Assembly: GCF_006345805.1 (NCBI RefSeq)
Contig: NC_043012.1
Location: 19,158,001 to 19,222,000 of the forward strand
Source: Octopus sinensis
Lineage: Eukaryota
Length of the DNA: 64,000 nucleotides
Direction: 5' to 3'
The position numbers and the translations under genes are program-made. The notes under the pieces are model-generated. The model ran no database searches, had not been told where the DNA came from, and worked only from the letters and a program-made list of their open reading frames with translations. Positions 5,720 to 29,116 of this stretch are shown in pieces; position 1 is the stretch's first letter; every line of letters begins with the position of its first letter.

Positions 5720-5975
5720 ATTATAAAGATACGTGCAAGTAATACCGTCTTGCTCTGAAACACCACTGGATAGTACGAAAACTAAAAGAAGCAGTGTATA
5801 TGGAAGGAGCCAACAACCTCCTAAGCAGACCGAGTGCAGATATGAACAGCATATGGGAACTGGTATTAAGGAAGGCTAGGAAAACATTAGAACTATAAGC
5901 ACTAAAATTCACCCAATAATTGCCTACGAGCATATTAGGTAGTGGTTAAGAACGTGGAAGAGACCTGAATAACCA
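5720..5975 (+). mobile_element. 3' end of PLE family 2 (GIY-YIG C-terminus and start of terminal repeat); continues at 7078-7225
   Basis: Translates as LKHHWIVRKLKEAVYMEGANNLLSRPSADMNSIWELVLRK. DNA is homologous to the reverse complement of 16810-16980 (gagtgcagatatga..agcatatgggaac.ggtattaaggaagg). Confidence 0.75.
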
Positions 5976-5986
5976 TAATAATAATG

Positions 5987-6019
<33 letters not shown>

Positions 6020-6057
6020 TAATAATAATAATAATATAATAATAATAATAATAAAAA

Positions 6058-6258
6058 GTGATAAAAAATATTCAGACAAATATATAACAAAAACACCAGG
6101 ACTTACAAAAATTGCACTACTAGGCACTGCACACATCCTACGCAGAACACTTTCCATACAATAACCTTCAGAGCATCACAACAAATCACAGCACATACCC
6201 AAGGCACACAGAGCTGCGCTCGGTAGTGAAGTGAAAGCACGATATAAAAATAAAACTA

Positions 6259-6262
<4 letters not shown>
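6058..6262 (+). mobile_element. R4/Dong-like non-LTR 3' end fragment flanked by (AAT)n
   Basis: Translates as KYITKTPGLTKIALLGTAHILRRTLSIQ*, then a short UTR and an (AAT)n tail. Confidence 0.7.
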
Positions 6263-6338
<76 letters not shown>

Positions 6339-6935
6339 CCACTGGCTAATAAGTCGGCATTACAATATCAAAACTGCCGACAAGTGGTATAATCACCACC
6401 CTGAGGCTGTAACTGAAGGAGAAAATGTAACCATTCTGTGGGACTTTCCAGTACATACACACCGAACCATCAAGGCCAATAAACCACATATTGTTGTGAA
6501 AGACCAAAACAATAAAGTTTGCTTATTGATCGACATGAGCATCCCCTGTGATAATAATATCTCAGCGAAAGAGTTTGACAAGCTCAGAAAATATAAAGAC
6601 CTACTCATTGAAATTGAGAAAATGTGGCATCTCAAGGCTGTTACAATACCAGTGATCGTAGGAGCACTAGGAATGATCAAGAAGGGAACCGAAAATTATA
6701 TGAGAATGATCCCTGGCTTACCATCCCTGCAAGAAGTGCAAAAGATTGTCTTAACTGGTACATCACACGTATTGAGAAGAGCTCATGTATTTTAATTTAA
6801 CTTAAAAAAAAAAATTATCGAACTATTGAGTTTGGTTTAATGGCCTACCAATGTATACTATGAGTTTCTTTGCGCTAGGAGTCGGGAAGACACTCGGCAA
6901 GAAATGGAAGCAAATTTGAAAGAAGAAGAAAAAAA
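6339..6935 (+). mobile_element. R4/Dong-like non-LTR 3' fragment encoding a restriction-like endonuclease (RLE) domain
   Basis: ENVTILWDFPVHTHRTIKANKPHIVVKDQNNKVCLLIDMSIP...KLRKYKDL...VTIPVIVGALG, the PD..D..K..KY RLE signature with D-to-H at PD. Bounded by (AAT)n on both sides. Confidence 0.85.
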
Positions 6936-6999
6936 ATAATAATAATAATTAATAATAATAATAACAAAAATAATAATAATAACAACAACAACAACAACA

Positions 7000-7057
<58 letters not shown>

Positions 7058-7077
7058 CAACAACAACAACAACAACA

Positions 7078-7225
7078 TCCAAAAATACTTTAGGAATGAG
7101 ACCCACGTTCGAAATTTCCCCAAGACACCTGGTGAAGTTCTGGAGGGTATATCAGCCGAAACATTGTGTTAACAATAAAAACGATGAGGAAAAATATCCG
7201 TCAAATGTAAATAATGTAAATAACA
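7078..7225 (+). repeat. PLE family 2 terminal repeat with a degenerate hammerhead at 7124-7170
   Basis: Matches 17632-17765 and the reverse complement of 16658-16785. Confidence 0.8.
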
Positions 7226-7479
7226 TGCCCTGTGTTTCCAAGCAATCGCTAAGCTCTGAGCACATTGTCTATTTATCTGAAAAGTTCAGTAATAAGCACA
7301 CTTGTAGGCCGTTAAACATACCGAGGACAGAAATCGGTTTAGTTGCCAAAAAATATTAACGAATATTCATATCACAATTAGAAGCACTACTATACTTTAG
7401 CAATGGATTAATAACAGCACTATAATAGATTGTTTTAAGAATGAGAACTGGAATAGATTTATACTGTTTGATATTATGG

Positions 7480-16299: not shown

Positions 16300-16620
16300 G
16301 TGGAGGCGCAATGGCCCAGACCGGGCGTTGTGAATGTTTATTGAGCGAAAACACCTAAAAGCAGGGGATGGTGGTGATCCCTGCTGTACTCTTTCACCAC
16401 AATTTTCTCTCACTCTTACTTCCTGTTTCTGTTGTACCTGTATTTCAAGGGGCCGGCCTTGTCACTCTCTGTGTCACGCTGAATATCCCCGAGAACTACG
16501 TTAAGGGTGCACGTGTCTGTGGAGTGCTCAGCCACTTACACCTTAATTTCACGAGCAGGCTGTTCCGTTGATTCGGATCAACCGGAACCCTCATCGTCGT
16601 AACCGACGGAGTGCTTCCAC
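16300..16620 (+). mobile_element. tRNA-derived SINE family B with 11-bp TSD; B-box region deleted
   Basis: TSD atatgttagct (16289-16299, 16621-16631); near-identical to the copies at 23338 and 28550. Confidence 0.9.
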
Positions 16621-16657
16621 ATATGTTAGCTATAATAAATCAAACACGTTATCACAT

Positions 16658-17797
16658 TATTTACATTTGTCGGATATTTGTCCTCTTCTTCTTTGTTGTT
16701 AACACAACGTTTCGGCTGATATACCCTCCAGCTTTCATCAGTTATCTTGGGGAATTTTCGAACCTGCGTTCTCATTCCTAAGGTATTTTTTAATGTCATT
16801 GTTATTATTATTCAGGTCACTGCCAGGAATCGAACGCTTTTAAGCACTACATCAAATGCCCGTGGGCAATTGTGGAGTGAATATTAGTGCTTATATTATG
16901 TAATATTTTACTATCCTTCCTTAATACCGGTTCCCATATGCTACTCATATCTGCACTCGTATTTTCCAGTGGTGTTCTCCGTCTATTATTTTAACTTCAT
17001 CCTACAGGGGGAGGTGGACTCCATTTTTCCATACACGAGAAGCTCGTATTACAGCTTTGCAATGTTCCTCTACCTTTATTTTGAGGGGTCGTCATGTTTC
17101 GCCTTTGTATAACCTACCACAGCTGCACAGGATTGGGTACACGCAGTTTTTGGTCAAATATCTCTTCTTGTGGTGGTTTTACTCGATGGAGATATATACG
17201 ACGTGTTGTATTCCACTTGGATACAGGCCCGATGTCATATGGGCTGCATATCTTTTGTAGCTTTTTGGAGAGGCCTTTTGACATAGAGTAGACATAGTGT
17301 GGACAGTTTATTGGTTTTAACCTTTCTCTTCTTCATAATTGGAGTGGATAGTATGTTTTTGGAGTAGTTATTGCTTAATAGATTGTCACTAAGTTTGATC
17401 ATTTCGTCCTGGTAGGTATCACGATCGCTACCTATATTCTTTGCTCGATGTTTTAGGCACTGAGCAGTCCCTTTCTTTACGTTGTATGGATTTGGGAAAT
17501 TGAAATTGGGGTATCGTCCAGTGAAGGTCGGCTTGTGGTATATGGATTTCCTGAATTCATACTTGGTGCACGTTATTAATACGTCCGGGAATGCTAACTG
17601 ATTGTCGTTTTATTATTCCATTGTAAACTGTACCTTAGGAATGAGAATCCGGTTCGAAATTTCCCCCAAGACACCCGATGAAGGTTAGAGAGTTTATCAG
17701 CCGAATAACAACAAACAAGATGAGGACAAATATCCGTCAAATGTAAATAATGTAAATAATGTACATAATTCCTTATCTCTTAAATACAGAACTGTAT
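16658..17797 (-). mobile_element. PLE family 2: 5'-truncated RT C-terminus plus GIY-YIG, with an inverted terminal repeat at the truncated 5' end
   Basis: Minus strand VQFTME*NDNQLAFPDVLIT...SIYHKPTFTGRY.NFN and NCVYPILCSCGRLYKGET*RPLKIKVEEH. Inverted repeats at 16658-16785 and 17632-17765. Candidate TSD gttatcacat (16648-16657, 17798-17807). Confidence 0.85.
16701..16746 (-). ncRNA. Minimal type I hammerhead ribozyme-like motif (stem I weakened)
   Basis: CUGAUGA-A-aGCUG(gaggguauau)CAGCc-GAAA-CG-UU-GUGUU. Sister copies supply GACAC as the stem I partner. Confidence 0.6.
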
Positions 17798-18901: not shown

Positions 18902-19671
18902 AAAGGAAATCCGTTGGAAAAACAAAAACAGAACAGAGGCAGAGCAAAAACAATCGAACTGTGCTCCTAAGAGCCCATGGCGAAACTGTTTATCAGTGTA
19001 TGTTGAGAACCGGTGGCTGAAGAATTCAACAGGTCAGGCATCGGTCAAACATGTGGGTGAGGGTGTATAGATTTCTTTGTGACCGAGAATAAGTTCTGAC
19101 TATTTAAAGAATATTGTGTTTTATAAGGGGCGAGAAAAAATCTACTTAGAGACGTGTGTGTGTGTATACTGTTTCTATTATTTGTGTGTTGGCGTAGGGG
19201 TAGAAAACATTTTTTGTGTACGTGTGTGCGTTTGATCGTTCGGCTGTCAGTGGCTACTGCCGTGATAACCGTTGGGTGGCAGAAAGAAAAAAAATAAAGA
19301 AATTATATATATATATTTTATGTTTTATGTGTGTGTGTGTGTGTTCATCTAAGCCTACCTTGACAAGGAAACCCCCCGCTGTGAAAAAACAAGCCCCGTT
19401 TGTCTTACAGGAGTAATTTCCCTTGCAGTGTTAATTGTAGATATCTTAAAATCTATTTCAGAATTTGTTACCAAGGGCTATGGGTGCCGGTCTTATATAA
19501 ACGCTATTTAAAGCCAGATAAGTGTAACGCCGCCAATGGGGGCATCGAAAAGCCGACTGTAAGAGCCCGTTTACCATCCGGCCTCTGGCAAACAAAATAT
19601 GGAAGAGTTCGGAGACACAAAGGTTGCACTGTCTTCTGCCCCTATCAAATGGGAGGGCCACCGACAAAATT

Positions 19672-21330
19672 TTACCTGCAAAACACCACGAACAGAATAG
19701 TGCAGAAAACTAAGAGCAGGTTAGCTAGGTTTTTTAATAGAATGGGCATGAGTATAGTTTTTGATAACGAACTCACCAAGGCTAATTTCCTAGACGTTAC
19801 ACTTAACCTTAATAGCGACTCATACTGCCCTTACCATAAGCCTTCCACTAATTTGAAGTATGTCAGTGTCTTCTCAAATCATGCCAAAACCGTAACAGAC
19901 AATTTGGTTAAAAACATCTCTCTAAGATTGTCTGGCCTGTCCGCCAGTGCCGATATTTTTATGCAGAAAGCGGATTTTTATAACGCCGCACTATCCAAGG
20001 CCGGTTATAGGCAGAAGGTAATTTATATTGATCCGGCCCTTCCGATGCCATCATTCGGTCATCAGGATAGGGCCGTATATAATAACATTAACATTTTAAG
20101 TAAGGACGGGAGCGCGGTGGATACCGGGGTAGTCGCTCCCGCATTTAATTTAGCGAACAAGGATAATTATCGGTCCGGGAGGTCTTACACTAACCCAAGA
20201 CCCGTTATTCATCCGAGATCACCCACCCACCCAAATGCGAGAGCTGGCGTCCGACCCATCACACTGATAGGAATAAGCATATATGGTTTGTAATCCCCTT
20301 TGGTAAGCAGATTAGAACTAACCTCCCCCTCATGTTTAGACAAGCCATCGCCAATAACTTCCCCAGAAATTCCAAATATTACTCCACGGTTAACTCACAT
20401 AAAGTTAGGATAGCTTTCTCCAACACTAAAAACCTCGCCCAGATAATCGCCTCCCATAATAATAGGCTACTTACTAAGACCCTATCACCTTTTTCCGGAG
20501 GCACAGCCTCTTCTTCCGCTCCCGGTTTAATGCTCAGTAGGAATAATTATAGTAGTAATAATGATATGAGAGCCAGTACAGTGACACATAATCTCAGCTC
20601 CAGCCAGGGAGTACCCACTAGGGGTATAGTTATAAATAGGGGTGTTGTGGTTGATGGTAACAATGGGAGTAGGGTAGAGAGCCCCTTAGCATCCCCAGCA
20701 TCATTTCCCGCAATAGCATACCACGGGCAGTAGCAATGACAGCACTCTGATAGATAGTGGAGAATCAGGGGTTATTCCTATAGTTAATAGTGACGTAGTG
20801 GAAAATAGAGTAGTAAGCGGCTGCAGGTCTCGGAACGAATATAGTGACAGGAACGCAGTTCTAATTTCAGAAACCAATCCTAGCAGAGTAAGATTTACGT
20901 CGGCGAACTCCAAGATCAAAAACGCCGTCTACCAATGCAAGGTTTACACGGACTCAGATGCCTTCACTTATATAGGGGCATCATCCTCAAGATTGTCTTT
21001 GCGTGTCTCCAACCATTACGCACTTTTCGGGACGTGAACAAGCGCCAGACCACGGGACTCAGTAAGCTAATATGGCGACTGAAGGATGCGAACTTAAGCT
21101 ATAGGCTGGAATGGTCAATTTTGTCGGTGGCCCTCCCATTTGATAGGGGCAGAAGACAGTGCAACCTTTGTGTCTCCGAACTCTTCCATATTTTGTTTGC
21201 CAGAGGCCGGATGGTAAACGGGCTCTTACAGTCGGCTTTTCGATGCCCCATTGGCGCGTTACACTTATCTGGCCTTTAAATAGCGTTTATAAATAAGACC
21301 GGCACCCATAGCCCTTGGTAACAAATTCTG
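19672..21330 (+). pseudogene. PLE ORF fragment: RT C-terminus/thumb, linker and GIY-YIG endonuclease, broken by several 1-bp frameshifts
   Basis: ANFLDVTLNLNSDSYCPYHKP...YVSVFSNH; HIWFVIPFGKQIRTN; KVRIAFSNTKNLAQIIASHN; NAVYQCKV...TYIGASS...RVSNH; TGLSKLIWRLK...EWSIL...CNLCVSE...RCPH. Confidence 0.9.
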
Positions 21331-27928: not shown

Positions 27929-28120
27929 ACTCCATTGAATTCAGGCGAAGATCTCGTGGCATACAACAATATCAGAGTCTAGGGAGTAATTGTGGGCAGC
28001 GTCATAAGCTGGGCCGCTCATATGAAAAACAAAGATTTACATAGCTCGCAGTGACCGTGTGTGTATCGTTGGATATTTTCCTTTTCCCTCTTCCCTTCCT
28101 TGAACCATTCCTTTTTCTAT

Positions 28121-28155
28121 ATTTCTGACGAAGAGCTCCGCTCGAAACGCTAAAT
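28121..28155 (+). ncRNA. Degenerate minimal hammerhead motif in a PLE-type terminal repeat relic
   Basis: auuu-CUGACGA-A-GAGC(ucc)GCUC-GAAA-CG-CU-aaau; the conserved U16.1 position is C. Confidence 0.55.
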
Positions 28156-28283
28156 CCTCCTGCTTTCTTTCGTTTCTTGAGCGTCCAATAACACTATACT
28201 TCTTACAAGTCTTGCGTTGTTGTGTTTTCTCTTTGTGTTTTCATGTTTGGATATATATAGATATACATGAATGTGTGTGTTAT

Positions 28284-28324: not shown

Positions 28325-29116
28325 TTATTTTATTTCTTTCAGTAATTTGACTGCGGGCCATGCTGGAGCACCTTCTTAAGTCGAACAAGTTGACCCCAGA
28401 ACTTATTCTTTATAAGCCTAGTACTTATTTTATCGGTCTATTTCTCCGAACCGCTAATTTACAGGGACGCAAACACACCAGCATCGGAAGTTTTGGAGGA
28501 TAAATATACTTATATATATATATATATATATATTATATTATATACATATGGGGAAGCACTCCGTCGGTTACGACGATGAGGGTTCCGGTTGATCCGAATC
28601 AACGGAACAGCCTGCTCGTGAAATTAACGTGTAAGTGGCTGAGCACTCCACAGACACGTGCACCCTTAACGTAGTTCTCGAGGATATTCAGCGTGACACA
28701 GAGAGTGACAAGGCCGGCCCTTTGAAATACAGGTAGAACAGAAACAGGAAGTAAGAGTGAGAGAAAGTTGTGGTGAAAGAGTACAGCAGGGATCACCACC
28801 ACCCCCTGCCGGACCCTCGTGGAGCTATTAGGTGTTTTCGCTCAATAAACACTCACAACGCTCGGTCTGGGAATAGAAACCACGATCCTATGACCGCGAG
28901 TCCGCTGCCCTAACCACTGGGCCATTGCGCCTCCACATATACATATATGTCTTGTATATATAAGATGGGTTTCTTTCAGTTTCCTACTATTAGATCCACT
29001 CACAAAGCTTTGATTGACTTTGTTTGGCTCGAGGTTATAGTAGTTGACAGTGGGACTGGACCCGGCACCATGTGGTTGCTAAGCAAGGTACTTACCACAC
29101 AGCCACTCCTGCGCCT
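28325..29116 (-). mobile_element. SINE family A, split by a SINE B insertion in its central (TA)n
   Basis: Tail at 28325-28488 (gactgcgggccatgctggagcacc); head at 28966-29116 (accacacagccactcctgcgcc). Confidence 0.8.
28550..28936 (-). mobile_element. Full-length SINE family B with 10-bp TSD
   Basis: TSD atatacatat (28540-28549, 28937-28946); A box tggcccagtgg. Confidence 0.9.

Follow-up and report, generated by a model that had tools for sequence, protein, structure and literature searches.

The module studied here is, as judged from sequence comparison, the pLTR of an EN+ Penelope/Poseidon-type element, and its copy in the window (the whole stretch of 64,000 nt that was analyzed) is a dead one. 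In the explanation that we favor, with slightly better than even confidence, the dead pLTR of this Penelope/Poseidon retrotransposon starts with a 73-nt tRNA-derived head, at which most copies begin and which is likely the element's own Pol III promoter. A further-reaching version is held tentatively, at somewhat less than even confidence: an autonomous coding retrotransposon would have switched to Pol III, with a captured SINE head driving an uncapped RNA of ~2.9 kb that includes an ORF purged of TTTT, and the same start would have given rise to thousands of SINE-like solo repeats. A Pol III promoter normally serves short non-coding RNAs. To our knowledge, the usual assumption is that an autonomous retrotransposon depends on Pol II (or Pol I read-through), and we know of very few elements in which PLE promoters have been studied.

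The tRNA-like boxes, the (AAT)n tract, and the hammerhead were all found on the minus strand of the window, downstream of a GIY-YIG/RT-linker relic (Table 1). The original prediction had named these same parts, and their positions were confirmed; its A box does exist, but had been placed at 16841-16851, which is off by 3 nt from the actual 16854-16844. The last 4-7 nt of the spacer correspond to a leader that is retained in many stand-alone copies, and transcription likely starts at this leader. When aligned to intact copies, the window head was found to lack 26 nt (positions 27-52). As this deletion makes the spacing between the A and B boxes too short, and as the A box is changed at three positions besides, the window copy was judged to be dead. 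Its hammerhead retains the core CTGATGA at 16741 and GAAAC-GTT at 16713-16706, with a weakening of both stem I and stem II. An abundant SINE-like repeat has copies at 16340-16620 and 28545-28700, the first of them a few dozen bases past the 3' end of the PLE copy.

Table 1. Features of the two pLTR copies in the window, with positions counted from its first nucleotide.
Feature	Position	Strand	Remark
3' part of PLE ORF: RT thumb, linker, GIY-YIG endonuclease, to stop codon	16891..17630	-	5'-truncated, frameshifted relic
Spacer from ORF stop to head	16862..16890	-	29 nt
tRNA/SINE-derived head, +1 at 16861	16815..16861	-	73 nt in intact copies, here without 27-52
A box, head positions 8-18	16844..16854	-	3 substitutions in the window copy
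B box GTTCGATTC, head positions 53-61	16827..16835	-	intact
(AAT)n tract	16795..16812	-	length highly variable across copies
First ATG of the PLE family's long ORF, within pLTR	16773..16775	-	
Type I minimal hammerhead, predicted to be cut after 16706	16701..16748	-	sequence read directly
3' part of pLTR	16654..16700	-	ends at first of two family end sites, no tail here
Inverted 5'-truncated pLTR copy with tail	17631..17793	+	marks the opposite end of this insertion
Second copy: ORF end, spacer, deleted head	5759..5965	+	head 5928-5965
Hammerhead/body half, probably of the second copy	7049..7227	+	split from head by LINE fragments within (AAT)n

A second copy with different internal deletions had been predicted near 5925-5975, and it was found there. 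Two LINE 3' fragments lie inside its (AAT)n tract at 5966-7048 (+), and an ORF at 6235-6795 resembles a restriction-like endonuclease end, of Dong/R4 type. As sequence related to these fragments was also found downstream of the head in three other copies (L140, L146, and L147), it seems that other elements tend to land in the (AAT)n tract. Elsewhere in the window, a second, unrelated hammerhead-like motif (CTGACGA ... GAAAC) lies in another repeat at 28120-28160 (+); the start of its stem II recurs three times among the sequences sampled, and it is probably the pLTR of another PLE family. Consecutive open frames of 302, 179, 106, and 131 aa at 19385-21279 (+) are likely a broken LINE ORF.

In the genome, a 25-nt pattern for the head start gave 2,447 exact matches, compared with 0 for its reversed control; exact patterns for the ORF end and the hammerhead gave 706 and 5,087 matches, and the pLTR-ORF junction gave 85 at ≤1 mismatch, all of these counts being rough because the patterns were unequal in length and degeneracy. 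Among the first 30 of the 706 ORF-end matches, taken in genome order, the head followed the ORF end in 30/30 copies, although some heads were partly deleted. Thus, the head is not a stray SINE insertion, and the possibility raised with the original prediction, that such an insertion is absent from most PLE copies, did not hold. A majority consensus of 60 loci yielded an uninterrupted ORF of 838 codons (2,517 nt), the first ATG of which lies inside the pLTR, just upstream of the hammerhead, and the pLTR was fused directly to the ORF at two loci (L371 and L377). Since the head is found at ORF ends, the ATG lies within the pLTR, and pLTR-ORF junctions exist, the module was assigned to the element as its own pLTR.

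The placement in the EN+ Penelope/Poseidon group was made from the ORF, pLTR, tail, hammerhead, and linker rather than from a phylogenetic tree, with the features as defined in excerpts of an earlier account (PMC8557442). The family has a single ORF with RT plus a GIY-YIG domain at its C terminus, the latter recognized through PF01541 in relatives, and it shows partial tandem and inverted pLTR copies with a one-sided tail of 30-40 bp. The core motifs and stems I and II of a type I minimal hammerhead are present, which makes it a predicted ribozyme without a Rfam score. The RT-EN linker, as read from the translation, is without an extra Zn-finger motif, which separates the family from Neptune/Nematis. 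An ORF of 551 aa from one member of the family (L351) had 1,697 relatives, and among the matches listed most carried PF00078 and some PF01541; direct Pfam scans of this ORF gave no match, and a PDB sequence search gave none that was significant.

In copies elsewhere in the genome, the intact head is 73 nt long with its A box starting at position 8 and its B box at position 53, which bears out the predicted ancestral repeat with a tRNA-derived head and correctly spaced boxes. Positions T8, A14, G15, G18, C32, T33, A37, and G53-C61 of the head agree with tRNA numbering. Both boxes are perfect in the intact head while the cloverleaf stems are broken, with 2/7 pairs left in the acceptor stem, 3/5 in the anticodon stem, and 3/5 in the T arm. 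ARAGORN at default settings and Rfam called no tRNA and no hammerhead in the module, and lowering the ARAGORN threshold produced nothing but a misfolded call on the head; the tRNA and hammerhead labels thus rest on motif positions and alignments. A functional tRNA gene was rejected because the stems are broken and no intact cloverleaf was recognized by either program.

As had been suggested, the head was also aligned to tRNAs. Among 44 distinct genomic tRNA sequences, an incomplete set, the best match was Arg(TCT), with 49 identities, a score of 58.5, and z of 6.7 against shuffles; Asn(GTT) scored 61. The consensus of 15 resident SINE heads was closer to the PLE head (score 68.5, 51 identities). 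Since this consensus scored above the best tRNAs, a SINE origin is likelier than a direct tRNA origin, within the limits of the tRNA set, and a resident SINE is the probable source of the captured head. Deletions of ≥5 nt were found in 17/30 heads (L161-L190) compared with 5/26 in the adjoining ORF end (P 0.006), a head count that may be inflated by the neighboring microsatellite. Apart from the PLE family, a tandem array of tRNA-Thr(AGT)-like units with ~152-bp spacing and at least ~25 units was seen at L319-L326 (G000:C1:210.43-210.44 Mb).

The 5' ends were determined for 90 of 100 listed head matches (of 2,447), one neighboring match and the last nine being omitted. Stand-alone copies, which begin ≤14 nt from the head +1, numbered 76, and 14 copies were joined to upstream PLE sequence, which gives, for this sample, the stand-alone versus ORF-linked count that the original prediction had proposed. 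A random 400 kb sample contained 2 copies of the module, not enough for counting, and a first DNA search, biased to head-deleted copies like the query, was excluded from the counts. The copies sampled include a few duplicates (L153/L154 and L204/L205), and some share one locus.

At their 5' ends, 24 of the 76 solo copies fold back, 27 have another adjacent inversion, and 25 are plain. Upstream of the head, truncation occurred at 22 events per 9,093 nt, from which 2.4% would be expected per 10 nt. A leader of ≥4 nt was kept in 14/25 plain, inversion-free copies compared with ~2% by chance, and it follows that the template began a few bases before +1. The leader and the head start form a short palindrome and an adjacent inversion is present in 51/76 solo copies, so fold-back adds to the 5' pile-up. 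The pile-up is not due to selection on the head, because it was also seen in 29 copies chosen on the body alone, not counting the query copy. Of these, 8 stop in the body or (AAT)n, 7 within the head, 13 at the head start, and 1 upstream, such that 13/14 of those that get as far as the head start end at it.

Similar behavior was seen in copies that continue beyond the tail into the ORF. In 70 of the 85, 56 ends lie in the body, 3 in the head, and 7 at -8 to +7, with 1 copy passing the head start to -14 and 3 reaching far upstream. Accordingly, 7/11 of those that reach the head start stop at -8 to +7 (P ~5e-4), so that RNA containing the ORF, too, had its start mostly at the head. In L410, L424, and L451, the tandem joints are jumps to the head leader. 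Many pLTR-ORF junction copies (L402, L410, L411, L424, L451, and others) break off past the tail, after ~65-100 nt of ORF, and then switch to a different piece of pLTR, frequently at the head leader; this stop is possibly a third priming or template-jump site.

A body was detectable in 64/76 solo copies, of which 30 end at body positions 125-143 and 28 at 159-180. The original prediction held that ribozyme cleavage sets the 3' end. This was refuted and a ribozyme-set end rejected, as only 2/64 solo copies and 0/40 ORF-linked copies (40 with a body in a set of 43) end ≤5 nt from the predicted cut at body position 77. By the same count, tandem units bounded by hammerhead cleavage, as in retrozymes, were not found. 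The two end sites match the PLE 'tail' of the Anolis element PAc, for which, according to excerpts of the report, RT starts internally in vitro at two adjacent sites bounding the tail, without hammerhead cleavage (PMC11167929).

The stand-alone copies bear the marks of a PLE, namely inverted 5' copies and two PLE-type 3' end sites, and the predicted copying of short units by the PLE RT was thereby supported. In the case of the predicted SINE partnered with a PLE, the PLE marks and the dominance of stand-alone copies (76/90) stood, but the separate SINE lineage did not. An A/B-box head at the 5' end is shared with tRNA-derived SINEs; a separate non-autonomous lineage that shares the 3' tail only was not found, and no solo-private variant was seen in the 190 body positions compared. 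As the module is the element's own pLTR and holds the ORF start codon, as solo-private body variants are missing, and as ORF-entering copies also start at the head, the best reading of the stand-alone copies is that the PLE reverse transcriptase made them as solo pLTRs.

No TTTT run is present in the 2,517-nt consensus ORF, compared with 2.9 expected from synonymous permutation (P 0.027), 3.2 from a codon shuffle (P 0.021), and 4.6 with Phe at the pooled two-fold rate (P 0.005); under a second-order Markov null, the expectation is no more than 1.7. The test concerns one ancestral sequence and one PLE control family. GGGG is also absent from the ORF (1.0 expected, P 0.29), and the bias of Phe toward TTC is borderline (P 0.058). 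In 20 non-independent frames of the headed family, 9 TTTT runs were counted compared with 27.5 expected, whereas 26 other long frames, some of these frames being microsatellite artefacts, held 77 compared with 74.8 expected. The control family, with the same T content (21.5% T), held 5 runs compared with 4.0 expected in 2,241 nt, and no A or B box was found in its recovered stretch, which is without the full pLTR. This control family (L085 6665-7930 (-) and L469-L498) is younger, with copies 94-97% alike, and has a Zn-finger-like linker; long (TG/TA)n tracts follow the element. The absence of TTTT is a modest signal that the entire element may have been transcribed by Pol III. Three raw unstranded RNA-seq runs under one related organism label gave coverage on both strands and no start or end piles, and 66-70% of the placed reads continued into unrelated flanks, a pattern compatible with all of the transcription models.

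The copies show the order of ORF stop, 29-nt spacer, head, (AAT)n, ATG, hammerhead, and the two 3' end sites. In the favored explanation, the head was probably taken from a resident SINE. Transcription of a tandem master, probably by Pol III, would begin ~4-7 nt ahead of the head and cross the 2.5-kb ORF, which is free of TTTT, to reach the next pLTR, and the PLE RT would prime inside this RNA, as described in vitro for the Anolis element in excerpts of that study (PMC11167929). Many SINE-like solo pLTRs would result when the RT primes at the first site, ~250 nt away from where the RNA begins, and priming at the second, downstream site would yield ORF-linked and mostly truncated copies such as the one in the window. 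Fold-back or template jumps would produce the inverted and tandem forms, and the prediction is that the copied unit is not set by the hammerhead. One gap in this model is that it gives no account of translation from an uncapped Pol III RNA. Moreover, Kojima argues, in the text excerpted, that the processivity of Pol III is too weak for autonomous elements and that autonomous partners must use Pol II (PMC10886601), and the Penelope promoter of D. virilis is described in excerpts as LINE-like with Inr/DPE motifs and an intron (PMC2377424); both points count against the favored explanation.

An unlikely alternative is that Pol III makes short head-to-tail SINE-like RNAs that are copied in trans by the PLE enzyme, the protein coming from a Pol II RNA started elsewhere, which is the original idea minus its ribozyme-defined end. 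The solo copies, 76/90, fit it, since they keep both boxes and often the tail and could be re-transcribed; a Pol II RNA would also be capped and translatable, and 3 ORF-entering copies do reach far upstream of the head. However, no terminator follows the tail inside the element, ORF-entering copies start at the head too, solo-private body variants are missing, and the TTTT-free ORF is left unaccounted for. It is less probable still that the head is a captured SINE remnant which coincides with a Pol II start site, with Pol II transcribing everything. A start lying 4-7 nt before the tRNA +1, together with A and B boxes that are perfect and stems that are broken, is the layout of a Pol III type 2 promoter, and the absence of TTTT is not predicted by Pol II transcription, even though known PLE start sites lie in the pLTR (excerpts of PMC2377424 and PMC8557442), the head resembles resident SINE heads, and heads are often deleted in ORF-linked copies (17/30), albeit dead ones.

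We consider it improbable that the 5' pile-up arose because the RT folded back or stalled at the head, or because the RNA was processed there like a tRNA, rather than from a transcription start. Fold-back at the leader/head palindrome accounts for 24/76 solo copies, with 27 more carrying an adjacent inversion, but 25 inversion-free copies still end at the head compared with 14 that pass it, and stalling would be expected on the 3' side of a structure. Processing is opposed by the broken acceptor stem and the retained leaders, which argue against an RNase P cut at +1; this cut was rejected on these grounds. That an independent short SINE, composed of the head and an (AAT)n tail, was inserted in some PLE copies is hardly credible: 12/76 solo heads had no body detected in the flank examined, but most of these are truncated or run into (AAT)n and then other repeats, and the idea was rejected as largely refuted by the head lying at the same site of 30/30 ORF ends.

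With a tRNA-headed PLE whose ORF is free of terminators, it can be tested in a simple way if a coding mobile element can be driven by Pol III, and how its RNA comes to be translated. Through internal priming, the PLE enzyme can generate SINE-like repeats in large numbers without a separate SINE gene, and a Pol III-driven PLE, if true, would be a direct route from PLE to SINE. The tRNA-headed pLTR may also be relevant to how hammerhead SINEs such as Sm-alpha arose. In genome annotation, there is a risk that thousands of tRNA-headed pLTR copies are mislabelled as SINEs.

No tRNA-headed PLE was found in a literature search, the repeat databases Repbase, Dfam, and SINEBase lying outside it. The words 'tRNA' and 'promoter' are absent from the portion of the retrozyme preprint text covered (bioRxiv 10.64898/2026.07.22.740005), and 'tRNA' is absent from PMC4209133; two octopus repeat papers, in the parts covered, name Penelope and SINE classes without linking them through a tRNA head (PMC13282606, PMC8967140), and the excerpts on D. 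virilis Penelope and Anolis PAc make no mention of one. The comparisons that follow are likewise with excerpts of the works cited. Similar to non-LTR retrozymes, which are short hammerhead-bearing PLE pLTR derivatives proposed to be PLE-mobilized, the octopus units are short; however, the retrozymes are tandem units with a hammerhead in each, whereas the octopus copies are mostly dispersed monomers or inverted pairs that start from a tRNA head (bioRxiv 10.64898/2026.07.22.740005). The schistosome Sm-alpha and Sj-alpha repeats share a Pol III-type promoter followed by a hammerhead and a high copy number, but they are non-coding and described as freed from multimers by the ribozyme, while the octopus unit is the pLTR of an ORF-bearing element with ends that ignore the cut site (PMC6765202, PMC2770079). 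TRIMp3 Cassandra, Helenus, and Ajax also carry a small-RNA-derived Pol III promoter in a terminal repeat, proposed to have come from SINE insertion; they are non-autonomous LTR elements of < ~1.3 kb, whereas the octopus element is a PLE with an 838-codon ORF (PMC10886601). The element is most similar in plan to D. virilis Penelope and Anolis PAc, with a single RT and GIY-YIG ORF and a minimal-hammerhead pLTR overlapping the ORF start (PMC11167929, PMC8557442). It shares with Penelope/Poseidon PLEs the two 3' end sites, the one-sided tail, the inverted and partial-tandem copies, and a start in the pLTR, and it differs from them in that its pLTR begins with a tRNA-derived A/B-box head.
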